The notes: a model not told the origin generated them from the sequence alone. 32,000 nucleotides of DNA from an uncultured Pseudomonadota bacterium (GCA_964534555.1 CAZHRK010000001.1:500600-532599), one strand, 5' to 3'. Counted from the first letter of the stretch, positions 18,084 through 30,532 are shown. Made by a program: numbers and translations.

Positions 18084-18124
18084 AAGCATAAACCACCACT
18101 ATCGGTGGTTTATGCTTTCTTTTC
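18084..18124 (+). terminator. strong hairpin plus T-tract between rpsD and rpoA (intrinsic terminator or attenuator)
   Basis: Perfect 14-bp stem AAGCATAAACCACC / GGTGGTTTATGCTT (18084-18097 / 18104-18117) with a 6-nt loop, followed by TCTTTTC. Confidence 0.7.
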
Positions 18125-18174
18125 GGTATTTGATTTGTGGTCAGTTGCGATTTATTTTTAAATGGATGCAGAAG

Positions 18175-19236: not shown

Positions 19237-19593
19237 ATGATGCACCAAAATGGCCGCAAAAAGCTGAATATGAAAACAGCGCACCGCACATCAGTGTTGC
19301 GCAACCAGCTCATTCACCTTATCAAGAACGGCTGCCTTCAATCAACAAAGGCACGTGTAAAAGAAGTACAGCGATTTGCTGAACGTATGGTTACACTTGC
19401 TCGTACAGGATATGATTTCAACACAATTCGTCGTGTTAAGTCACAACTTCCTTACGATGAAGCTGCAGTTGTTAAGCTTATCAAAGAAATTGCACCAAAA
19501 TATGTTGGTCGTCCAGGTGGATACACACGTGTAATCCCTCTTGGTCGTCGCACAAGCGATACAGCATATATTGCTCGCCTTGAGTGGGTGTAA
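19237..19593 (+). CDS. rplQ: 50S ribosomal protein L17
   Basis: 118 aa with the KL......HR....RN and GGYTR motifs. Last gene of the alpha operon. Confidence 0.95.
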   Translation: MMHQNGRKKLNMKTAHRTSVLRNQLIHLIKNGCLQSTKARVKEVQRFAERMVTLARTGYDFNTIRRVKSQLPYDEAAVVKLIKEIAPKYVGRPGGYTRVIPLGRRTSDTAYIARLEWV

Positions 19594-19620
19594 GCTTAAT
19601 AAGCTTCACATACAAGTGTA

Positions 19621-19656
19621 AAAAAAGCCCTCTGGGATTACCAGGGGGCTTTTTTA
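19621..19656. terminator. bidirectional intrinsic terminator between convergent rplQ and dcd
   Basis: A6-GCCCTCTGG-gatta-CCAGGGGGC-T6. 9-bp GC-rich stem (one G-U pair) flanked by an A-tract and a T-tract, so it reads as hairpin plus U-tract on both strands. Confidence 0.8.
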
Positions 19657-19684
19657 TTGAGCATAATAGAACGTACCGTTTGAT

Positions 19685-20257
19685 TTACATCATAGGTAAT
19701 GTGATTCCTACTTGCTTCATGTATTTGCCTTGGCGGTCTGCGTATGAAATCTCACATTCATCATCTGATTGGAAGAAAATCACCTGCGCGATTCCTTCGT
19801 TAGCATATATTTTTGCTGGGAGTGGGGTTGTATTAGAAATTTCGATTGTCACATAACCTTCCCACTCAGGCTCAAAAGGCGTTACGTTTACAATAATCCC
19901 GCAACGTGCATAAGTTGATTTGCCAAGGCAGATTGTTAGGATGTTTCGTGGTATTCTGAAATACTCAACGCTGCGAGCAAGAGCGAATGAGTTTGGTGGA
20001 ACAATACACACATCTGCATTAATTCTAACAAAAGACTCTTCTTTAAAGTTTTTTGGGTCAACTATAGAGTTGTACACATTAGTGAATACTTTAAATTCAT
20101 TTGCAACTCTGATGTCGTAGCCGTAGCTTGAGACACCATAGCTAACAATATTTGATTTTGTTTCATCACTGTTGCGTACTTGTCTATCAACAAAAGGTTC
20201 GATCATGCCACGTTCTTGTGACATGAAGCGTATCCAGCTATCAGGTTTAATGCTCAT
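19685..20257 (-). CDS. dcd: dCTP deaminase
   Basis: 190 aa with the SYGYD.R and G.S...R.G.....T..EP.W.G..T.E..N motifs typical of the Dcd/dUTPase-like fold. Strong GAGGAGG SD on the minus strand. Confidence 0.9.
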
Positions 20258-20353
20258 AGTTCCTCCTCGTAGTCTGCTATAAACTTCATCAATTCATACC
20301 ATAAACTTAAACATCTTGATAGGCTGACCTCTGTTAAATGTGAGGAGTAAGTG

Positions 20354-21304
20354 ATGAAGAATGTTTGTGGTGGTCATGTTGCAATTATCGGTGCCGGATT
20401 TGTAGGCAGCGCGACAGCGTATTCATTATTACTCAGCGGCGTTGCAACAACAATTACACTTATTGATGCTAATGAAGACAAAGCTCTTGGAGAAGCCCTT
20501 GACCTCATGCATGCAACTCAATTTACCCCAGGATGCAGTATTCGCGCTGGGAGTGATTTAGCTCTTGCCGCAGAAGCAGATATTGTTGTGCTTGCAGCTG
20601 GTGCGAATCAGAAACCAGGTCAAAGCCGTTCTGATCTTCTTAGTCAAAACGTTGCTGTTTTTAAAAGCATAGTCCCGTCACTTGCAGCAATTAATCCATC
20701 ATGCATGTTGCTTGTAGTAACAAATCCGCTTGATGTTATGACATACGTTGCTTACAAATTATCAGGATTTACAAGTAATCGTGTATTTGGTTCAGGAACT
20801 GTTCTTGACTCAGCGCGCTTAAGATTTCTCCTTGGGCAGCAGCTTGCAGTGAGTCCAAAAGATATCGTTGCTTTTGTTCTTGGTGAGCATGGAGATTCTG
20901 AGTTTGTTTGGTGGAGTGGAGTTACAATAGGCGGCGCACCGATTAGCGCATTCCCCGCTATTGATCTACTCAAGATGCATGAATTACATGAGCAAACACG
21001 CCAGGCCGCGCAGGTGATTATAAGCAAAAAGGGTGTAACTAATTATGCTATTGCTAGCGCAGTTACAAAAATTATTAAGGCCCTTTTAAAATCTCAAGAA
21101 CGTATTTTTTCTTTATCAGTTGTAACGTCAGATAGTATTGCAGGAAAAGAGATTTGCATAAGCTTGCCTGGCATCATCCGAAAAGACGGCTATTTTGATC
21201 GAATTCCTCTTTCACTTACAAAAGAAGAGCGAATGCTATTAGACCAGTCAGCCGCAAAAATTTACGCAGAAACACAAATAGCCTTAGGCCTTATTTCCTC
21301 ATAG
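20354..21304 (+). CDS. ldh: L-lactate dehydrogenase
   Basis: Rossmann motif IIGAGFVGS. GANQKPGQSR has Gln, not Arg, at the substrate-specificity position, which favours LDH over MDH. Also has LDSAR and the LDH signature GEHGDSE. ATG 20354 lies 6 nt after GAGGAG; in-frame GTG 20351 is an alternative start. Confidence 0.88.
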   Translation: MKNVCGGHVAIIGAGFVGSATAYSLLLSGVATTITLIDANEDKALGEALDLMHATQFTPGCSIRAGSDLALAAEADIVVLAAGANQKPGQSRSDLLSQNVAVFKSIVPSLAAINPSCMLLVVTNPLDVMTYVAYKLSGFTSNRVFGSGTVLDSARLRFLLGQQLAVSPKDIVAFVLGEHGDSEFVWWSGVTIGGAPISAFPAIDLLKMHELHEQTRQAAQVIISKKGVTNYAIASAVTKIIKALLKSQERIFSLSVVTSDSIAGKEICISLPGIIRKDGYFDRIPLSLTKEERMLLDQSAAKIYAETQIALGLISS

Positions 21305-21450: not shown

Positions 21451-24400
21451 ATGAAAAAGGTCTTTGAGTCATTACGTTTGTGTAGCGTAATGCTACTAGT
21501 AGCTCATTTTAATGTGAGTGCTCGTATTGATTTTGGAAGCAAAAATTCAATGCTCTCCTTTGGTTCAGATGCAAAATTCAGTGTTAACTCTTCAAATCTT
21601 TCAATCCCAGGAACACTTAAATTAGATGAATCAACGCTTGTTAGTGGTTCTGAATTTGCTTTTGATGATGGTGCGCTGATTGTTGGATCAAGTGAGTCAA
21701 ACTTTACAGGCGCGTATGATCCATCATCTGACGACACGATTAAGCTTAATGGTGACAGCATTTTTAATGCTGGTGCCGGCACAGTCCTTAAAGCCCTTAA
21801 TGTTTCAGGCACCGGAAACCTACTAACCGGTCAGCCTACATTTGATTCAGCTATTACACTTGCTGACAACACCACTGAGCTGGGCATTGGGATCAAAAGC
21901 AAGCTCAATAAAAATATTGTTCTTAACGGCGGCGCTGTGACTTTGCACGATGATTTAGCTCTTGCTGATCATGTTAAGCTTTCTGGTAACGGTTCAGTTG
22001 ATCTTAATTTTAGGCAGCTTAGCCTTGGAAGCTTTTATCAGACTCCTTGGTCTGGCGATTTGACGTTTTCTAATGCACTTGATATCGAGCTTAATGGTTC
22101 TATAGAGCTGACAGGTTCATGGACCTTTGATGGTCTTTGTGTGATTAATGGTAATGGCGCTGTTATTGACTTAACCTCCGGTGGAAGCTTAATTATTAAC
22201 GATGATGCTACCTTAGTGCTTTACAATGTTATTATTAAAGGCATAGGAAGTGGCCTTGGTGGTGATATTGTTCTTGCAACAGCAACAAGCTCAATCAAAA
22301 CAACAAATACAGAATTAAGTTTTGCCGGAAACAAAACATTTACGATAGGTAAGATTGTTGCAAATGGACCTACAACCTTTGCCGTTGGTCCTCATTCATG
22401 CGTATTCTCATCACTTGGTATACTTGCCGCAGATGGCTCAGTAATAACAGTTGATTTCCTTGATTCAGAATCAACTCCTGGTGGTGTGTTTGCGCCAGAT
22501 GATGTCCTTGATCCGCTTAATGCTGGTTCGAACGTTAATGTTAATCTTACGAATAATGGCTACATTCGTAATGCCGTTGGCTCGTCTGAATCAACGCCGT
22601 CAACAGATCCTGGTGCGATTGATCTTCTAAGCGGTAACGTAACATCTGATGTTACGCTCTCAAAAGAGCTGTTTCTTTCACCGTCACAATTTATAAAGAT
22701 TAATGGGAATGTTGTACTTGATGGTCAAGGCACACGTATTCATTTTTCTGGTGACAAGCCACAACTTATTATTAAGCCAGGCAAAACGTTAACGCTTAAA
22801 AACGTTACGCTTGATAATCTTACACAAAATACAATCGATATTAGGTTATCAAGCAATCCATCATCAGCAGGTGCTCGATACGGTACTGGGGTTTTAAAGA
22901 TTGATAAAAATGTTACGTGGGTCCTTGATACAAGTATCTCTTTTTCAAGCGGTAAAATTGTTGTGCTCCCAACAGATGATGGTACAAATATTTTCAAAAT
23001 GCGTGCCCCTGCAACAAGACAAAGCTTTAGCCTTGCTCCGCGTGATATCGATGCAGAGTCAACTCAAGCAGAGCGCAATACGCACCGTGGTGCAAATGCG
23101 ATTTTAAGTCTTGGTAATAGCACTCTTCAGCTAGAGAGTATTACATTTGATGGCCTTGAGTTTACTCATGCCGACTATACAAATGAAATTGCAAGCCCTG
23201 CGATTGCGCTTTCTGGTGATTCAACTGTTAATGTTGGTAGCTATAAAGTTTTTGGTCAGCCAGCGTCAGATGCGCTTACGCCTTTTGTAACAAAAATGAA
23301 TTTCTTTGTTGAAGGCGCGGGCAATGGTTTAATTATGACTAATGACAGCAATAAACTTCAGGGATCAATTTTGTTTGGTGACGTTGCTGAAAACAATCTT
23401 GAAATCGCTTTTAACTACACGCCAAATATTCCAGCGCGCACCATTTCACAGACAGAGCGCTTTATTACTACTCAGTCAAATGACGTAGTGCCTATTAACG
23501 AGCCTACTGCGGTTGTCCCAGCAAAAGTGCCGCTGCTCGTATTTGCTGGTGACCCAGGGATGTTTGTTTTTTCAGAAGAAGGAAGTGCCCAATTAACATT
23601 TAATGCTGTTGAGTGCGCACTCCAAAACCTTGGTGACAACTCGTTTATTCTTGATGATAACAGCGTGGTGCGCTATAACACACTGTATCTGTATGATTAT
23701 CCCGTTAAGCAGCAATCAACCAATACTCGCTACTTTGGTACAACGCGTGGAACAAGCTTTTTTGATGCGTCATTTGCAGTTAGAAGCGCTTTGGCAAAAC
23801 AGCAATCAGCTAAGAAAAAGCCATGTGCCCTTCAGCTTAAATATAAAAAAGCTCGCGCTAAACATAAAAAAATGGCCTCAGAGGCACGCAAGCGAGAGCT
23901 TGCTGAAGAGGTTCAGGTTTCTACCAATCACCCAGAAAATAACGTCATGAGGTCTAGCTCACGAGCATCGCTGCGCACTTTTACTATTCCTACTGGGATT
24001 ACAAGTGTTGATAGTGTTGTTGATGCATCAGGATCAGCATATAGTGGCGCGTATCTTTTTAAAAAGGGCGCTAATGTATCAAATATTAAATTCGATGCAG
24101 GAAGTCCTTTTGATGGATACCTGACAGACGGTATTACCCTCAGCACAGACCCATCGCAAGGAGTATCAATTGATAGTACTCATAAATTATATATAGACAC
24201 GACTCCTGATGATGTTGCAAATTATTTAATTATTAACAAAAGCTGTACTATTGATTGTTCCGCACTTGTTTTTAATCCCGCGCAGGTATCAGGAGACGCA
24301 GTAATCAAGCGCTCGCAGCTTGCAATAAAAATTCCTGATCCATCTACTCGGGTTATTTTGACCGGAGTTTTGACGCTGCCCCTTGGTGCTGTACTTACTT

Positions 24401-25344
24401 TTCTTGATAAAGGTGATGTGAAAATTCATGCAGGGTTTAGTGTTGTATATGAGGTTTCTGATACTACAGTTCCTTTACACCAATTACCTGTGATCAACAT
24501 AAGTAATGAAACTAAAGCATCAGTGGTACCTGTATCTGCTTTTTCTTCACCTATTACCACAACTGGTCGTGGATATTTAAGGCTTGAAGACAAAGCACAG
24601 CTAGATCTTTCGGGGAACGCTCTTATTGCTGGCCCAGCAACAGTTACTTCTGCTCTTGAGTATCAAAATCATGAATTAACAATCGAGGTTCAGCCTGAGG
24701 CTTATTTACTTCTGGGAGATGCGAGTGGCAATAGCGCCGTCCTATGCAGCAGAAATAGTGTTTTTGCACTTGTTAATAGAGGTAAGGTTTATATTTACGG
24801 TGGGTCGAGTTTGTTAATCAATACAGCACTTGATGGAGTCACACCGGCTCCAGGACGGTTAAGCTATTTCGAGCATAAAAATGGATCATATTTCAATTCT
24901 ACTGGGACATTGTGCATAGGTGACAATAGCTTAAGTGGTGGTGTTCCGTTGCAATCAAATTTTGAGCTTCAAAGCATGTCTTTAGAGGGTACTGGCTCGG
25001 TGAAATTTATTACATCAGATTCATCATTCCCGGGAATTACGGCTGTGCAATCACCAAAGTCGTCTTTCTCTTATCCACTTGCTAGTGTGAGCCCGCTTAC
25101 GATTGTTGCTACGTTTGCAAATATTGATACCACAAGATACCCAACATCATATGTCTTCTTTAAAGATAATAAGTGGACGCTTATTACAAAAAATGGTGTT
25201 ACTGTTCAGCTTGATGCTGATGAATACCCAAATTATGAGGATGCTGATGGTGACATCCACTGTGATACTAATTCGACCAATCTTAATTTTGTTGTAAAAC
25301 CAGATGGTAAACGTATTTATGCAAATGGCACAATCAAAAATTAA
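21451..25344 (+). CDS. large secreted repeat protein, beta-helix-like by composition (hypothetical; gene A of cluster)
   Basis: 1297 aa from ATG 21451, 5 nt after AGGAG (ORF open from GTG 21418). N-terminal signal peptide MKKVFESLRLCSVMLLVAHFNVSA. Rich in G, N, T, S and short alternating hydrophobic stretches. Contains the WTFDG..INGNG..IDL module shared with gene D. Has no C-terminal aromatic beta-barrel signature. Confidence 0.85.
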   Translation: MKKVFESLRLCSVMLLVAHFNVSARIDFGSKNSMLSFGSDAKFSVNSSNLSIPGTLKLDESTLVSGSEFAFDDGALIVGSSESNFTGAYDPSSDDTIKLNGDSIFNAGAGTVLKALNVSGTGNLLTGQPTFDSAITLADNTTELGIGIKSKLNKNIVLNGGAVTLHDDLALADHVKLSGNGSVDLNFRQLSLGSFYQTPWSGDLTFSNALDIELNGSIELTGSWTFDGLCVINGNGAVIDLTSGGSLIINDDATLVLYNVIIKGIGSGLGGDIVLATATSSIKTTNTELSFAGNKTFTIGKIVANGPTTFAVGPHSCVFSSLGILAADGSVITVDFLDSESTPGGVFAPDDVLDPLNAGSNVNVNLTNNGYIRNAVGSSESTPSTDPGAIDLLSGNVTSDVTLSKELFLSPSQFIKINGNVVLDGQGTRIHFSGDKPQLIIKPGKTLTLKNVTLDNLTQNTIDIRLSSNPSSAGARYGTGVLKIDKNVTWVLDTSISFSSGKIVVLPTDDGTNIFKMRAPATRQSFSLAPRDIDAESTQAERNTHRGANAILSLGNSTLQLESITFDGLEFTHADYTNEIASPAIALSGDSTVNVGSYKVFGQPASDALTPFVTKMNFFVEGAGNGLIMTNDSNKLQGSILFGDVAENNLEIAFNYTPNIPARTISQTERFITTQSNDVVPINEPTAVVPAKVPLLVFAGDPGMFVFSEEGSAQLTFNAVECALQNLGDNSFILDDNSVVRYNTLYLYDYPVKQQSTNTRYFGTTRGTSFFDASFAVRSALAKQQSAKKKPCALQLKYKKARAKHKKMASEARKRELAEEVQVSTNHPENNVMRSSSRASLRTFTIPTGITSVDSVVDASGSAYSGAYLFKKGANVSNIKFDAGSPFDGYLTDGITLSTDPSQGVSIDSTHKLYIDTTPDDVANYLIINKSCTIDCSALVFNPAQVSGDAVIKRSQLAIKIPDPSTRVILTGVLTLPLGAVLTFLDKGDVKIHAGFSVVYEVSDTTVPLHQLPVINISNETKASVVPVSAFSSPITTTGRGYLRLEDKAQLDLSGNALIAGPATVTSALEYQNHELTIEVQPEAYLLLGDASGNSAVLCSRNSVFALVNRGKVYIYGGSSLLINTALDGVTPAPGRLSYFEHKNGSYFNSTGTLCIGDNSLSGGVPLQSNFELQSMSLEGTGSVKFITSDSSFPGITAVQSPKSSFSYPLASVSPLTIVATFANIDTTRYPTSYVFFKDNKWTLITKNGVTVQLDADEYPNYEDADGDIHCDTNSTNLNFVVKPDGKRIYANGTIKN
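22120..22380 (+). repeat. protein-level module copy A1 (WTFDGLCVINGNGAVIDLTSGGSLIINDDATLVLYNVIIKGIG...GPTTF)
   Basis: Aligns by eye, position for position, with 28082-28345 in gene D (WTF[DE]G, GNG, [IL]DL, L.L.N[VL][IV][IL][KR]G[IL]G, TNT, FT.G, GPTT). Confidence 0.8.
22693..22970 (+). repeat. degenerate module copy A2 (IKINGNVVLDGQGTRIHF...LTLKNVTLDNL...)
   Basis: Keeps the ING...DGQG...I / L.LKNV.L spacing of the module but lacks the WTF anchor. Weaker match. Confidence 0.5.
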
Positions 25345-25358
25345 CAAGGAGCATGGCA

Positions 25359-27062
25359 ATGAACATGAATAAAGGCCTATTTATTGCAGCCATCCTTCTT
25401 GTGGGATGTGTACGAGCAGAAGCTGAAGTGAGTCATCATAAAGAGCGTGATGACCGTCGCGCTCGTAGGGCAGAGCATAAGCAAATGCCTCATGCAGAGA
25501 CCTCTGCGGAGCGCCTAACCACTCAAGAGCGTAAAAAGCTTATGTCGCGCTGGCATGAATTTCTTGCATCGCAAGATGAGCACGATGTAGCGCTTGGCCG
25601 TTATGCAGACTTATACCTTGTTCCTGCCTGGCCTGTGCACGCACGTTGGTTTGAGCATATGCATCAACTCGGGATTAATTTCTTATATTCATACGCTACA
25701 GATGCTCTGAGCTCGAGTGGTAGTGCGTCTGATGATGTAACGAGTGTTGCTTTTGGTCAATCAACAATCAAGCTAAGCGATATGCTTGCAGTTGCAAATG
25801 TAACACAAGCTGGTCGTGTGACATTTCGTGATGAATTCGAATCTAAATTGTTTATGGTTCCAGGCGCAGTCCCTGCTTTTCCTGCTGGTGCTAATGATAT
25901 TGCTGTTATTAAAACAGGTGGGTTAGCTTTAGTTGCTGCTGGTGCTGCGGGTGATGCAACTGTTCGATCAGATAATTATTTTGGTTATACGCATGATCTT
26001 TTGATCAAGCTTAATGGTCGTCAGGAGCGGTTTGGCGTTGCGCTTGATTTGACGCGATACATTCTGCCTGACCGTTTGAGCATCGGGGTGCACCTACCAG
26101 TTATGTATGTTAAGCATGGGCTTGATTTTACGATTGATACCGCTGACACTTTTGCAAAAGCATCAGCTGCAGGTGGGGGTGTTAACGTTGGTGCTTATGG
26201 TCCTGCTACTGGTCTTGCAAACTTGTTTCTTCGTCGTTATGGCGCTGATCCTGTACGTTTTGTTAAGGATGTTTTGCTACAAAAAGGCTTTAGAGAGCTT
26301 GGTGGAAGCGCGACCGGACTTGGTGATCTATCACTCTTCTTAGCCGGACAAATTGATGCGCCAGAAGTCGAGCGTGTTATTGTTGGCGCACGCGTACAGA
26401 TCCCGACGGGTAAAAAGGCAACACAGTCAAAACTGTGGGCGCCTGACCTTGGTAATGGCGGATTTACAGAGCTTTCTATGTACGCAGCAACATGCTTTCA
26501 GTATAACCGCTGGTTAAATCCTCATGTGATGGCTAGCCTTGGTGCTAGTGCCCCAGCACACGTTAATCGTCGTGTACCAAGGTATTTTTCTGTCACAAAT
26601 ACTACGGGGGCAGCACAACAACTTAATGTACTCCTTCGTGATCAGCCACTTGCCATGGCAGAGCGTGTTCAAGTTAATGATGCTAACACTGTTTCAGGGT
26701 GGGATACTGCAGTTAATGGTTTTGGCGACACGATTTCATCTGTCAAGGTAACGCGCGGGGTAGAGGTCAAGTTGCGCCTGGGTAACGTTTTTCAAGATGT
26801 GTTTGCAAAGCGTGGTACGGCTGATGTTTATTACGATATGCGCGCAAAAACAAAAGATAGTGTAAGTGGGCTATCTCGAGAGTTATATAACCTCGATGCT
26901 ATGCGTAAAAACACAAATCAGACAGAGCATCGTATCGGGCTTGAGTATAGCTACCAACCAAATCATGAGACACGCCTGCGTACGGGTGTTGTGTATACGT
27001 TTGCTGGAACAAATGTTGCTAAAACGCTTGAATGGAATACAACAATAAATTACTCATTTTAG
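25359..27062 (+). CDS. outer-membrane beta-barrel protein candidate (hypothetical; gene B of cluster)
   Basis: The ORF is open from ATG 25353. AAGGAG (25346-25351) is best spaced for ATG 25359. Signal peptide with an LLVGC lipobox-like site, or an AEA/EV SPase I site. ~50-aa highly charged segment follows, then alternating-hydrophobicity sequence. The C-terminus ...EWNTTINYSF ends in Phe, a BAM beta-signal-like feature. The GLGDLSLF...IPTGKK...LGNGGF block recalls the Phenol_MetA_deg-type OM channel family; that is from memory and unverified. Confidence 0.75.
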   Translation: MNMNKGLFIAAILLVGCVRAEAEVSHHKERDDRRARRAEHKQMPHAETSAERLTTQERKKLMSRWHEFLASQDEHDVALGRYADLYLVPAWPVHARWFEHMHQLGINFLYSYATDALSSSGSASDDVTSVAFGQSTIKLSDMLAVANVTQAGRVTFRDEFESKLFMVPGAVPAFPAGANDIAVIKTGGLALVAAGAAGDATVRSDNYFGYTHDLLIKLNGRQERFGVALDLTRYILPDRLSIGVHLPVMYVKHGLDFTIDTADTFAKASAAGGGVNVGAYGPATGLANLFLRRYGADPVRFVKDVLLQKGFRELGGSATGLGDLSLFLAGQIDAPEVERVIVGARVQIPTGKKATQSKLWAPDLGNGGFTELSMYAATCFQYNRWLNPHVMASLGASAPAHVNRRVPRYFSVTNTTGAAQQLNVLLRDQPLAMAERVQVNDANTVSGWDTAVNGFGDTISSVKVTRGVEVKLRLGNVFQDVFAKRGTADVYYDMRAKTKDSVSGLSRELYNLDAMRKNTNQTEHRIGLEYSYQPNHETRLRTGVVYTFAGTNVAKTLEWNTTINYSF

Positions 27063-27119
27063 TGGTAGTGCAGAGCAGGCATTATGCTGAAATGTTTTTC
27101 TAGCATAACAATTTTTAGT

Positions 27120-27151
27120 GTGCGCCTGCATTTTGCGGGCGCACTTTGTTT
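27120..27151 (+). terminator. intrinsic terminator after gene B, 17 nt before the gene C start
   Basis: 11-bp stem GTGCGCCTGCA / TGCGGGCGCAC (one G-U pair) with loop TTT, followed by TTTGTTT. Confidence 0.8.
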
Positions 27152-27167
27152 AGGTTAAAGGCACAGT

Positions 27168-27563
27168 ATGAAAAACTACACGAAAATCTTTTTGTTGATG
27201 ATGATGAACGCTTCATGTTTTGCAGCTATTAAGATTTCAAGCGGGAACCAGAAGCTTGAGGGCGTTAATGCCCGTATCACAACAAACAATACATTCACAA
27301 CAGGTAAAACTATTGTGATAGTTCCAAATAAAACAGGAAAGCTTGAAGGAATAAAATCAATTGAATTTGATGTCACCTATGAGCCTGTTGACGAAAAGTA
27401 TCGTGATGGTTTTAAAAATGCTGTTGTGATTACCCCAGCTCAAACACATGATCTTGAAGACATGCACGATCATGAAGAGAGCAGAAATGACAATAAAAAA
27501 GCATATGTTGTTCCTGATGTAATTATTGAGAAAATTGTTGCACAGCTTACTTCAGAGGAGTGA
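27168..27563 (+). CDS. small secreted protein (hypothetical; gene C of cluster)
   Basis: 131 aa with signal peptide MKNYTKIFLLMMMNASCFA and an acidic C-terminal third. Its last codons contain the SD (GAGGAG) of gene D. Confidence 0.7.
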   Translation: MKNYTKIFLLMMMNASCFAAIKISSGNQKLEGVNARITTNNTFTTGKTIVIVPNKTGKLEGIKSIEFDVTYEPVDEKYRDGFKNAVVITPAQTHDLEDMHDHEESRNDNKKAYVVPDVIIEKIVAQLTSEE

Positions 27564-27568
27564 TGGTG

Positions 27569-29479
27569 ATGATACGATATGGTTTATTAATCGCTATAAT
27601 ATTGTTGCCGCACCCCGATCTTGAAGCAGCTAAGGCAAAAGGTGTTAAAGCAGCATCAAAAAGCTCAACAATTAAAGTTTCTGGTGGCACAGCAAAAATA
27701 TCAAATGCTAATGCTTCTCTTGAAGGGTTAACTATTGAGGTCAGTGCTGCAAATAAACTTTCAGGATCATTCAACACAAATAATACAACACTAAAAATAG
27801 CATCTAATGGTACTAATTTGGTTGTTGGTGGGGTTACCAACGTCGCGAATAATACACTGCCAGCAAAGAGTGGTAATGCTAACCAGGATCTTGAATTTAT
27901 TACAGCGACATCGTTAGACGCGTCATTATCATTTGCTTCAGGTAAAAAGTTTAGTGGAACTATTGATGCCGCTGGTCAGTCTGTCAAAACAGATGCAACA
28001 CCGCGGACCTACAGCAGCAACGCACGCTTATTAAATATGCTCGATCTTGAATTTTTAGGAGAGACAACGCTCGCGACTCAGTGGACCTTTGAGGGTGATG
28101 CTGTTGTGAGTGGAAACGGAAATATCCTTGATTTAAGCCCAAGCGGTACGATTGTCGTCGCGCCAGATACCGAGCTTACACTTGCAAATCTTGTTTTGCG
28201 TGGTCTTGGTAACGCTCCTGGGCTGGGTAAAATCTATCTTACAGACAAATCTTCTGTGCTTAAATTAACAAATACAACTGTTGAGCTTGATGATGATTAT
28301 ACATTTACTCGCGGTGGTATTTATGTTGTTGGGCCTACAACAATTATTACTGCAGATCATACGCTTACTATCGATCAGCAGGCATCAATGACGGTTGATA
28401 ACGTAACTTTGTATTATGATACGCTTACTTTTTCTGATGATGCTAATATTGCACCAGAGATAGCTGATGAAAGCACAAATCCCGTGTATGTTGTGTCAGT
28501 TAATAATGGCCAGATACTCCATGCAAACCCAGAGGGTGGGGTGGCGCCTCCTGCTGGTGATGAGATTATCTCATCAGATCTAACGCTTTCAGAGCTTGCA
28601 GTTGCTTCACCATCAACCAAGTTTATATTCACTTCAAGCGCAACACTTGATGGTGCAAGCTTCCCGCTCATTTTCACTCGAGCAGATATTCCTGTGGTAG
28701 AAGTTGATGATGCAGTTGAGGCACGCTTTACTGATATTAGGCTTGAGCATGTCGCACCGTCATTAATTGGTCTTGGTGCTGGCGCAACAGTTGTTTTTGA
28801 TGACGCTGTTGAGCTTGATCTTGCAAAAGATGATGCGCTAGAAGATACATGGACATTTCGTGGTGCATGCAGAATTAATGGACAAGGAAGCACACTTGAT
28901 CTTTCGGCTGGTGATCTTGTTATCCAGGGTGCTGATAGCTCCTTACTTATTGAGAATATTGTTATCACCGGACTTGCAGGAAGCGCAATTCGCTGCACAG
29001 ACAATACTCAAACAGTAACATTTAAAAACGTAACCTTTTTGCTTGATGATACATTCACAATGACAAAAGGGCGTTTTGAAGTAGATGGCGTATGCCTTGT
29101 TCAAGGTGATGGCACGTTTGAATATGCATCTGCTGTAGCTAGTAAGGTTAATGCAGGCGGCACATTAGCTCTTGACGGTGCTACATTTCATTATGCTCCT
29201 GCCGTGGCAAATAGAGATCTTATTATTTTTGATACCGCTGCAGCACGTATGAGTCTTAATGGTGCAACGCTTTCTTCAACAACAACGGGTATGCGCCTTA
29301 CTCGCGGTACGCTTATTCTAGATCATAAAAATATCATTAATGCGTCAGGTAGCTCTGTATCAAGCGGAATATCGATTGGTAACGGATCCTCTGATTACGA
29401 CCTTGATATTAAACTTTTTCCTGGAGCAAGCCTTAACACAATCGCAGGAAGACTTATTTATGCAAACGTTGACGCATAA
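27569..29479 (+). CDS. secreted repeat protein, paralogue of gene A N-terminal region (hypothetical; gene D of cluster)
   Basis: The ORF is open from GTG 27560. ATG 27569 (or GTG 27566) is properly spaced from GAGGAG 27555-27560. Signal peptide MIRYGLLIAIILLPHPDLEA. Contains two copies of the WTFxG...G[NQ]G..LDL module. No C-terminal barrel signature. Confidence 0.85.
   Translation: MIRYGLLIAIILLPHPDLEAAKAKGVKAASKSSTIKVSGGTAKISNANASLEGLTIEVSAANKLSGSFNTNNTTLKIASNGTNLVVGGVTNVANNTLPAKSGNANQDLEFITATSLDASLSFASGKKFSGTIDAAGQSVKTDATPRTYSSNARLLNMLDLEFLGETTLATQWTFEGDAVVSGNGNILDLSPSGTIVVAPDTELTLANLVLRGLGNAPGLGKIYLTDKSSVLKLTNTTVELDDDYTFTRGGIYVVGPTTIITADHTLTIDQQASMTVDNVTLYYDTLTFSDDANIAPEIADESTNPVYVVSVNNGQILHANPEGGVAPPAGDEIISSDLTLSELAVASPSTKFIFTSSATLDGASFPLIFTRADIPVVEVDDAVEARFTDIRLEHVAPSLIGLGAGATVVFDDAVELDLAKDDALEDTWTFRGACRINGQGSTLDLSAGDLVIQGADSSLLIENIVITGLAGSAIRCTDNTQTVTFKNVTFLLDDTFTMTKGRFEVDGVCLVQGDGTFEYASAVASKVNAGGTLALDGATFHYAPAVANRDLIIFDTAAARMSLNGATLSSTTTGMRLTRGTLILDHKNIINASGSSVSSGISIGNGSSDYDLDIKLFPGASLNTIAGRLIYANVDA
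28082..28345 (+). repeat. protein-level module copy D1 (WTFEGDAVVSGNGNILDLSPSGTIVVAPDTELTLANLVLRGLG...GPTTI)
   Basis: Best match to copy A1 (22120-22380), with conserved anchors along ~88 aa. Confidence 0.8.
28850..29101 (+). repeat. protein-level module copy D2 (WTFRGACRINGQGSTLDLSAGDLVIQGADSSLLIENIVITGLAG...)
   Basis: Same anchor order as A1 and D1: WTF.G, ING.G, LDLS, L.IEN[IV]VI.GL.G, F.NVTF.LDD.FT.T.G. Confidence 0.75.
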
Positions 29480-29511
29480 ATTATAGTTTCTGAGTACTTA
29501 ATTAGAGTGAC

Positions 29512-29545
29512 AAGAGGCGGATTTTTCCGCCTCTTCTTGTTTTTT
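29512..29545 (+). terminator. intrinsic terminator after gene D
   Basis: Perfect 10-bp stem AAGAGGCGGA / TCCGCCTCTT with loop TTTT, followed by CTTGTTTTTT. Confidence 0.85.
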
Positions 29546-29606
29546 GCCTGATTTATTTTAGATTGAGCGGGTAAAATATTTTCACTTTAATCCGGAGCGA
29601 TTATTA

Positions 29607-30410
29607 ATGGCAGCGCGTATTCAAAAAATTTTCGCAGTGATGTTAGTAGTTGGATGTTCATTGAGCTCGTTACTTTCAGTTACAACACGTAGTGGGAAAG
29701 TAGTTGGAGTGCCACACACAGTAGTTTCTGGTAATTATGTTCAACCAAAATTACATAAAAAACTTGCGCCCGGAGAAATTATAGAGCTTCATGCTGGCTC
29801 TGTGTATGACATGAATGGTGCTGAGCTTGATATGGCTAAAGGGCACATTCATCTTGTTGGGAATGGCGTAGCTCCTATCACTATAAAAAACGGTACAATC
29901 AAAAATTTTACTAATAAATCATTAAAAATTGTTGGTAACAAGCCGCGTCTGATATTAGACACTCTTGAATTGTATCTTGATTCAAATATCTGTTTCCCTT
30001 GCAGTGTCCAGATTCAAGGTATTGTCCAGATTACTCGATTAGGCGAAGATATCTCTGATTATACTATTTATTTAAACGAGGCAGGCCAGGTAATTATTAT
30101 GCCAGAATCGCAGCTTCTTATAGATGCTATAGACGTAGAGTCTTGTGTTGAGTCACCGATTCTTTTTTCAGCTGAAACAAGCGAGCTTTTGCTTGCGTCA
30201 GTTGATTGGTTTATGAATGCTGATCTAAGGTTTATGCGTGGTCTTATAACAACATCGATTGTTAAATTCAAAGGCGACCGTTCAGCATACTACCCGCAGA
30301 CATTATTTTTAGGTGATGCAAAAAACAAGATAAATAATTCCTTTTTAGGTAGGGTTGATGCCACTGAATTTGCCACTGACTATGTAACTATTATCGATAA
30401 TAATAAGTAA
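29607..30410 (+). CDS. lipoprotein candidate with degenerate copy of the cluster module (hypothetical; gene E)
   Basis: 267 aa. Signal peptide with lipobox LVVG-C (Cys17, codon 29655-29657). The internal segment GHIHLVGNGVAPITIKNGTIKNF...LILDTLELYLD resembles the GNG / L.L.N module. GGAG SD lies 9 nt upstream. Confidence 0.75.
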   Translation: MAARIQKIFAVMLVVGCSLSSLLSVTTRSGKVVGVPHTVVSGNYVQPKLHKKLAPGEIIELHAGSVYDMNGAELDMAKGHIHLVGNGVAPITIKNGTIKNFTNKSLKIVGNKPRLILDTLELYLDSNICFPCSVQIQGIVQITRLGEDISDYTIYLNEAGQVIIMPESQLLIDAIDVESCVESPILFSAETSELLLASVDWFMNADLRFMRGLITTSIVKFKGDRSAYYPQTLFLGDAKNKINNSFLGRVDATEFATDYVTIIDNNK

Positions 30411-30460: not shown

Positions 30461-30532
30461 AAAGCCCACAGTGCTAATCTCATTCTGTTTTATACAGGAA
30501 ATAGTTTTGAGAGAGGAAACGCCGTGGGCTTT
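30461..30532 (+). promoter_or_regulatory. structured RNA element (terminator-like or translational control) enclosing the SD and start codon of the downstream gene
   Basis: The 9-bp outer stem AAAGCCCAC (30461-30469) / GTGGGCTTT (30524-30532) contains the GTG start and is followed by TTATTTT. Two inner hairpins: 30483-30499, and 30504-30520 whose loop GAGAGAG is part of the SD. Confidence 0.4.

Follow-up and report, generated by a model that had tools for sequence, protein, structure and literature searches.

A candidate envelope gene pair of Babeliales combining a giant, probably beta-helical protein with a predicted FapF/COG4313-fold barrel

We analysed a 32,000-nucleotide stretch of DNA deposited under an uncultured Pseudomonadota bacterium (GCA_964534555.1, CAZHRK010000001.1:500600-532599; hereafter the window), in which five same-direction genes, designated A, B, C, D and E, lie 3' of the housekeeping genes rplQ, dcd and ldh. 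A sequence-only reading of the window had proposed these five genes as a self-contained and undescribed surface-display or export cluster. Here we show that the conserved unit at this locus is the A-B pair together with a variable set of paralogues of a module found in A, D and E, and we argue that the cluster is best explained as one local form of an envelope system that Babeliales have in common.

Gene content of the locus

The window carries the ribosomal operons str, S10, spc and alpha, which end at rpoA and rplQ (19237-19593) and are followed by dcd on the minus strand (19685-20257), an ldh/mdh gene (20351-21304) and then genes A to E (Table 1). The G+C content of the A-E region, ~0.38-0.47, is no different from that of the rest of the window. 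Taxonomically, every named homologue of B belongs to "Candidatus Babeliales" or "candidate division TM6", so we assign the source organism to the Babeliales (Dependentiae/TM6). The contig itself is represented both in a Logan assembly and in an NCBI genome. A close relative, locus L017 among those fetched for comparison, holds all five genes at a synonymous divergence of ~0.23-0.46, with nonsynonymous-to-synonymous rate ratios (dN/dS) of 0.09 for A, 0.11 for B, 0.21 for C, 0.03 for D and 0.23 for E, which confirms that A to E are real genes under purifying selection. The open reading frames and their retention in L017 bear out the proposal of five co-directional genes after housekeeping genes. 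None of the five proteins (0/5) reaches any threshold in Pfam or NCBIfam, in keeping with the earlier statement that no named family applies to them; the accompanying impression that the parts lack relatives held less well, since the module touches one Pfam family through paralogues and B has, as modelled, the fold of FapF and COG4313 channels.

Table 1 Coordinates of genes and features, counted from the first nucleotide of the window
Feature	Position	Strand	Description
Gene A	21451-25344	+	1297-aa open reading frame; ribosome-binding site AAAGGAG upstream; no Pfam match
A, module copy 1 (aa 204-335)	22060-22455	+	Local iterated hidden Markov model (HMM), E = 6e-33; partly within the confident all-beta part of the model
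A, module copy 2, partial (aa 398-509)	22642-22977	+	Local HMM, E = 2.8e-20
A, Lys/Arg-rich linker (aa 781-820)	23791-23910	+	14 Lys + Arg in 40 aa
A, A-specific C-terminal domain (aa 841-1291)	23971-25323	+	Profile matches A orthologues and two L006 proteins only
Gene B	25359-27062	+	567 aa; same sequence as database protein P0001; predicted barrel (AlphaFold2 model and Foldseek)
B, N-terminal charged helical region (aa 23-85)	25425-25613	+	13 Lys + Arg, 13 Asp + Glu, 6 His; length varies in the family
B, Pro349-Thr350-Gly351	26403-26411	+	Within 'QIPTGKKATQSKLWAPDLGNGGFTE'; P349 and T350 invariant in 34 sequences
Intrinsic-terminator-like hairpin and T-run after B	27120-27154 (hairpin 27120-27144)	+	11-bp stem, 8 GC pairs; dG = -22.6, z = -3.8
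Gene C	27168-27563	+	131 aa; signal-like N-terminus, acidic C-terminal half
Gene D	27569-29479	+	636 aa; two full modules (aa 157-292, 407-549), local HMM E = 7e-43, 5e-48
Intrinsic-terminator-like hairpin and T-run after D	29512-29545 (hairpin 29512-29535)	+	10-bp stem; dG = -19.7, z = -4.7
Gene E	29607-30410	+	267 aa; partial modules aa 70-143, 152-232; lipobox VVGC (Cys17)

By our heuristic, 5/5 proteins begin like secretory precursors, with one to three Lys/Arg residues, a cleavage site that fits the -3/-1 rule and a hydrophobic core whose mean Kyte-Doolittle value over 9 residues is 2.1-3.4; the signal of C is the weakest of the five, yet its N-terminus is kept in frame in L017. The module proteins examined (A, D, E and the A orthologues) all have such signal-peptide-like N-termini, and in the A orthologues the predicted cleavage falls directly before a conserved "x-F-G-S" motif. 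Lipobox patterns are present where they had been reported, as VVGC in E and LVGC in B. Comparison across the B family does not bear out the second of these as a lipidation site: the cysteine mostly lies in a C-x-A|R context (at -3), of signal peptidase I type, and several members have no cysteine, so it is doubtful that B is a lipoprotein.

The barrel protein B and the module of A, D and E

The start of B on record is the second ATG, which yields the 567-aa protein as opposed to a 569-aa version. A word-indexed search returned 36 homologues of B, all unnamed or from Babeliales and 500-812 aa long, and a profile search of 1.84 billion representative proteins returned 295 clusters (at 50% identity) with E <= 1e-30, a number that rises to 360 with E <= 1e-10. 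Members of the family have in common a putative signal peptide, a Lys/Glu/Arg-rich region of variable length, a conserved "SPAWP" segment and a barrel with a terminal Y-x-F, as well as a nearly invariant block "FPTGKKA...KLWAPDLGNGGFTE", in which the residue after the invariant P349-T350 is G, or A in a few of the 34 aligned sequences. At the sequence level the family stands apart: a Pfam scan of 34 members gave no match at E <= 10, ten remote members gave a single faint match to PF13557 (E = 0.044, below membership), and, against PDB sequences, the full B profile gave only low-complexity matches to the charged N-terminus and a barrel-only profile gave none.

Structurally, the AlphaFold2 model of B (mean predicted local distance difference test score, pLDDT, 80.4; predicted template modeling score 0.72) comprises two helices at residues 4-40 and 44-78, the first of which takes in the signal peptide, and a barrel that runs from residue 102 to the C-terminus, with a low-confidence insert at aa 166-201. 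The N-terminal helical region is probably a coiled coil. A Foldseek search of the PDB with this model returned FapF or the COG4313 channel 4rl8 for all of the top 20 matches (E 1e-12 to 6e-9, template modeling score (TM-score) 0.63-0.77), FapF with E = 1.3e-12 and a TM-score to target of 0.63-0.73, and 4rl8 with E = 1.5e-10 and the highest TM-score of all matches, 0.74-0.77. Weaker matches, at ~1e-5, were to autotransporter beta-domains (EstA, EspP, BrkA, NalP, Hbp), FadL and OmpG. The model, the Foldseek matches and the C-terminal Y-x-F together confirm, at the level of structure prediction, the earlier proposal that B is an outer-membrane beta-barrel, and by its predicted fold B belongs to the FapF/COG4313 superfamily. 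It may also form trimers.

The two sides of this superfamily do different things. FapF is a trimeric channel that secretes unfolded amyloid subunits and is built of a periplasmic coiled coil, which is required for secretion, a linker, a plug helix and a 12-stranded barrel (PMC5557850). COG4313 proteins are ~270-aa uptake channels for hydrophobic molecules, with the N-terminus threaded into the barrel and without a periplasmic coiled coil (PMC6173800), and a Pro-Thr-Gly (PTG) motif, proposed as a lateral gate, is conserved in both (PMC5557850, PMC6173800). The main alternative, conceivable though on balance unlikely, is that B is a COG4313-like uptake channel for hydrophobic or host-derived molecules, or a general or major porin, without any export role, that its linkage to A reflects co-transcription only, and that the beta-helix proteins leave by type II secretion or in vesicles, or stay periplasmic. 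Consistent with this, the best TM-score of the B model (0.77) is to the COG4313 channel, the uptake channels share the PTG motif, and the faint PF13557 match noted above comes from the corresponding family; biologically, the host-dependent Dependentiae need import routes (PMC6561590, PMC4776705) and TM6 members share a conserved type II secretion system (PMC4776705). The charged N-terminal helical region of B argues the other way, being a feature of FapF that is not seen in the COG4313 structure.

The proposed partners of B are defined by the family-specific module that the sequence-only reading had recognized in A, D and E. This module spans ~140 aa, with the consensus "..TWTF.G....GNG..LDL...G.I.....S.L...N..L.GL", and links A to D by BLASTP (E = 3e-22), the segment being present twice in D. 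Similarity of E to module proteins is weak or marginal by BLAST, and a local, iterated profile built from all open reading frames of the fetched loci finds two partial copies in E (E = 1e-11 and 1.6e-13). In Pfam, the module approaches PF20585 ("Putative pectate lyase-like adhesive domain"), whose gathering threshold of 24.3 bits is passed by P0041 (25.5) and by a 321-aa protein of L004 (25.7); a third paralogue scores 16.9 bits, A, D and E themselves have no match, and the PF20585 match spans only part of the ~140-aa module. Against PDB sequences the module profile found nothing significant, the best match being LptA at E = 0.0036 (0.62 for the stretch itself). We consider the fold of the module likely to be a right-handed beta-helix. 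As stated earlier, LPXTG is absent from the module proteins of the window, and Pfam scans of the window proteins and their paralogues found no barrel of the module proteins' own. The Pmp motifs GGA[ILV] (1, 0 and 0 occurrences in A, D and E) and FxxN (3, 1 and 0) occur at chance level or below.

Profiles made from parts of a full-length alignment of 11 orthologues divide A into a putative signal peptide (aa 1-24), an N-terminal motif of ~95 aa that is common to ~700-aa paralogues, two modules, an A-specific middle domain (aa 520-775), the Lys/Arg-rich linker and, as the last ~455 aa or so, the A-specific C-terminal domain. A Lys/Arg-rich stretch occurs at the equivalent place in 11/11 A orthologues (L002-L016 included), with 12-32 Lys + Arg per 60 aa, and is predicted, at low confidence, to form a short helix; this stretch might touch the charged helices or the barrel lumen of B. 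Within the C-terminal domain a second-iteration profile finds module-like segments, and A is therefore probably a pair of beta-helical halves with a basic linker between them. The structural model of A, which covers residues 98-1297, is confident over aa 98-317 (pLDDT ~90), where it shows short beta-strands throughout, and poor beyond residue 317; a beta-helix fold for most of A is likely. We also observed similar C-terminal motifs in A ('...GKRIYANGTIKN', 25309-25344), D ('...AGRLIYANVDA', 29447-29479) and a 373-aa paralogue of L004 ('...IIDYKNVDA'), which may represent a shared cap or signal.

Conservation of the A-B pair across Babeliales

In the window B begins 14 nt downstream of A. Counting the window, the arrangement of a full-length A followed by B at a distance of 11-64 nt recurs in ten further loci (L002, L003, L004, L008, L009, L010, L011, L012, L013 and L016). 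Most loci have the pair directly after rplQ, dcd and ldh, and the order rpoA, rplQ, dcd (opposite strand), ldh, A, B is kept in divergent Babeliales (window 19237-21304, L002-L004, L008, L010 and L016); in L009 and L011 the ribosomal genes are inverted downstream, with A-B intact. The most distant locus, L006, where B is 27% identical, has a 494-aa gene 29 nt upstream of B that matches only the C-terminal domain of A. Both the persistence of the 11-64 nt spacing down to 27% identity in B and the fact that the A-specific C-terminal domain is the part retained beside B in L006 argue against B being an uptake channel that is merely co-transcribed with A.

Further from the pair, conservation is looser. 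There are three to six module proteins per Dependentiae locus, and those downstream of B number two to five in all loci except L003, which has none there. The five-gene set had been put forward as a unit; what is conserved is the A-B pair, with C specific to one lineage and D- or E-like genes varying from 0 to 5. The closest relation noted for D is a 43%-identical, 532-aa product encoded 3' of B in L004; for E, a 269-aa module protein of L012 is a loose counterpart at best; and homologues of C were found only in the close relative L017, in no other locus. A second, distant B paralogue (26% identical) occurs in L014 (1298-12905) and L015 (26-3298), and the L014 copy has, downstream, genes for proteins of 2077 and 1167 aa with four and two full modules, a flanking arrangement that again speaks against an uptake role for B. 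L014 and L009 belong to the same metagenome-assembled genome, so a single genome can carry two barrel systems. In both L014 and L015, the gene preceding this second paralogue was considered as an A-like gene and rejected, as it encodes a multi-transmembrane protein with a long coiled coil.

The same conservation could be read in favor of a structural role, in which A, with D and E, forms an S-layer-like or fibrous coat that B anchors, in the manner of OmpM/Slp-type coiled-coil-plus-barrel anchors, and does not secrete, the C-terminal domain or basic linker of A docking on or plugging the barrel or helices of B. We judge this improbable. A core, syntenic and vertically inherited unit beside housekeeping genes would suit a structural envelope component, the Lys/Arg-rich linker and A-specific C-terminal domain are conserved as docking elements might be, and the helical region of B is so variable in length (homologues of 500-812 aa) as to resemble a spacer. 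However, Pfam finds no S-layer homology (SLH) domain in B or its 34 homologues and no SLH or other peptidoglycan-binding domain in B or A, porin-type or OmpM-type structures are not among the best fold matches of B, and A must still cross the outer membrane to form a coat, so that this reading partly overlaps with our best explanation.

The remaining features of the locus concern C, D, E and their transcription. C had been described as acidic, which is apt for its C-terminal half (net charge -6) and only mildly so for the whole protein (net -3); the idea that C is a degenerate N-terminal fragment of a D-like protein was tried and is unsupported (BLASTP E = 0.011, 6 bits against the module HMM). 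As for the proposed translational coupling of C to D, the called start of D is 27569, and an alternative GTG start at 27560 would give a 4-nt overlap with the stop codon of C. Terminators had been said to divide the cluster into A-B, C-D and E, and this stands for the strong hairpins after B (the hairpin there is identical in L017) and after D. The sole candidate 3' of E is a long hairpin of atypical form (30463-30530, dG = -26.4, z = -3.8), which is followed by TTTTTATTTT and whose 3' arm overlaps the start of the next gene. That gene (start ~30524) leaves the window, is 1445 aa long in L001 and L017, has PPDK_N as its sole Pfam match and begins with a hydrophobic, signal- or transmembrane-like N-terminus. 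At the other end of the locus, the mechanically called rpoA open reading frame begins at 18112 (369 aa), whereas calls on the identical contig give 348 aa from an ATG (MNYKPLILPK...), as in orthologues (window 18112-18174).

A proposed split export system and its relation to known systems

The idea of a surface-display or export cluster gained support from these results, because B folds, as modelled, like FapF and because Babeliales loci keep A and B as a closely spaced pair; the export step itself, through B, is conjectural. We posit, tentatively and at somewhat short of even confidence, a split, type-V-like system in which B, as a translocator or anchor of FapF type, serves beta-helix proteins exported by Sec. 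Mechanistically, A and its shorter paralogues D and E would cross the inner membrane via Sec, be kept unfolded in the periplasm, be captured by the periplasmic region of B and be threaded through, or anchored by, its barrel; once outside, they would take up their beta-helical fold, form a coat on the cell and bind to structures of the host. Passenger and translocator would be separate genes, with a translocator that is FapF-like and not Omp85-like, and C would be a lineage-specific accessory protein. For A, D and E we infer a surface location, passage through B and an adhesin role. A bolder form of the proposal, that the A-B pair represents a new class of outer-membrane protein export, core to Dependentiae, in which a FapF-type barrel with a periplasmic coiled coil, in place of an Omp85 or fused autotransporter barrel, translocates and displays many beta-helix adhesins for attaching to or manipulating protist hosts, strikes us as possible and rather doubtful.

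Several considerations weigh against B as a translocator or anchor of these proteins. At the protein level, B has no sequence-level match to FapF, PF13557 or any PDB chain; its barrel region is ~200 aa longer than the matched FapF chains, with large inserted loops; and its barrel fold is common to COG4313 channels, which import hydrophobic molecules. The signal peptides are calls from a simple heuristic alone, which weighs charge, the hydrophobic core and the -3/-1 rule. For A, homologue searches returned no more than 4-5 matches, whether started from the single protein or from an alignment of 12 A sequences, so the alignment available for structure prediction was shallow (7 rows), and the resulting model of residues 98-1297 is poor (mean pLDDT 53.6); its best Foldseek matches are all right-handed beta-helices, namely the passengers Hbp, Ag43, EspP and pertactin, PL6 lyases and tailspikes, and all are non-significant (best E = 0.045). 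Genomically, A and B could be neighbours simply because abundant envelope proteins are expressed together from a site next to the ribosomal operon, and TM6 genomes encode a type II secretion system able to export folded proteins (PMC4776705). Module proteins also occur away from B genes, some of them fused to or beside WD40 propellers, a distribution that suits an uptake role for B as well. Among them we noted L018 7136-13858, L019 7317-14581 and L006 14678-16762 as having no B nearby, and P0040 (2240 aa) and P0039 (1655 aa) as associated with WD40 beta-propellers. From this breadth of contexts it follows that the module family is a large, multi-architecture expansion in Dependentiae.

What gives the translocator proposal its interest is the biology of the lineage. 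Dependentiae (TM6) are widespread obligate protist parasites, in which about half of the genes encode signal-peptide proteins of unknown function and almost nothing is known of host attachment or manipulation (PMC6561590); the cluster is not described in the Dependentiae literature that we searched. A giant, probably beta-helical protein and a FapF-fold barrel, paired in synteny throughout the order and accompanied by a multi-copy family of related beta-helix proteins, would be a candidate answer to the question of how Dependentiae interact with their hosts, and hundreds of unannotated proteins (~295 clusters for B alone) would gain a family definition and a testable role.

Among known systems, the Pseudomonas Fap system offers the closest structural parallel, FapF (PDB 5o65/5o67/5o68) being the best structural match of the B model. 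As in FapF, the order in B is signal peptide, periplasmic helical region (probably a coiled coil), linker and barrel, a PTG-type motif is present, and the barrel is encoded beside proteins that are predicted to be Sec-exported and lack a barrel of their own. On the other hand, B shows no detectable sequence similarity to FapF and has giant beta-helix module proteins as neighbours in place of FapB/FapC amyloid repeat subunits; none of FapA, FapB/FapC, FapE or FapD (a C39 peptidase) has a Pfam or NCBIfam match in A-E. With COG4313/Phenol_MetA_deg (PF13557) channels such as Pput2725 (4rl8), B shares its highest TM-score and the PTG motif, and it differs in being twice as long and linked to genes for beta-helix proteins, and in that no B-family member reaches PF13557.

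In autotransporter and two-partner secretion, an unfolded beta-helix cargo crosses a barrel and folds outside. In outline, A, D and E resemble such cargo in being long, putatively Sec-dependent, probably beta-helical and adhesin-like; 12-stranded, autotransporter-like barrels of type Va are among the fold matches of B (~1e-5), and, as in type Vb, the cargo gene adjoins the barrel gene. In contrast to type Va, the barrel of B is not fused to a passenger and is a separate gene product with its own putative signal peptide, and A, D and E have no PF03797 autotransporter domain. In contrast to type Vb, B does not belong to the Omp85/POTRA proteins, nor does the cargo contain a two-partner secretion (TPS) domain; POTRA, ShlB and Haemagg_act have no matches in A-E or the B homologues, and one module paralogue gives a faint Fil_haemagg match of E = 0.22. 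B further differs from type V translocators, which have no N-terminal coiled coil, in its probable one.

Chlamydial Pmp proteins provide a parallel of lifestyle and family structure, the module proteins likewise being a multi-copy, fast-diverging family of probably beta-helical, surface-type proteins with clustered paralogues in an obligate intracellular bacterium. Unlike Pmp proteins, A, D and E lack GGA[ILV]/FxxN repeats and the barrel is encoded separately; Chlam_PMP, PMP_M and autotransporter domains have no Pfam match in the window proteins, and a faint ChlamPMP_M match (E = 0.4) occurs in one paralogue.

These comparisons bear on whether the cluster is simply a diverged member of a described system, be it type Va or Vb, Pmp, Fap or a pectate-lyase-type carbohydrate-active enzyme with a porin. 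In favor of this, autotransporter beta-domains are secondary fold matches of B, the A model finds beta-helix passengers and polysaccharide lyases as its best, though non-significant, matches, and there is the faint ChlamPMP_M match. With no PF03797, TPS, POTRA/ShlB, Chlam_PMP, FapB/C or C39 peptidase match in A-E, with Pmp repeats no more frequent than chance, with passenger and barrel as separate genes that each encode a putative signal peptide, and with no lyase family match or catalytic signature found, it is largely refuted, and we hold it to be very improbable. The cluster is not a Fap, Pmp, type Va, type Vb or S-layer/SLH system, as the defining features of each fail.

Evolutionarily, then, the parts resemble known kinds, namely a beta-helix adhesin-like cargo and a FapF/COG4313-fold barrel, and it is their combination that appears undescribed: the two as separate conserved genes, in a distant phylum, and without other Fap or type V components. 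If B does export beta-helix proteins, the role of FapF-type channels would reach beyond the secretion of amyloid in Proteobacteria and take in adhesin-type cargo in that distant phylum, and a "split" variant would be added to the logic of type V secretion.

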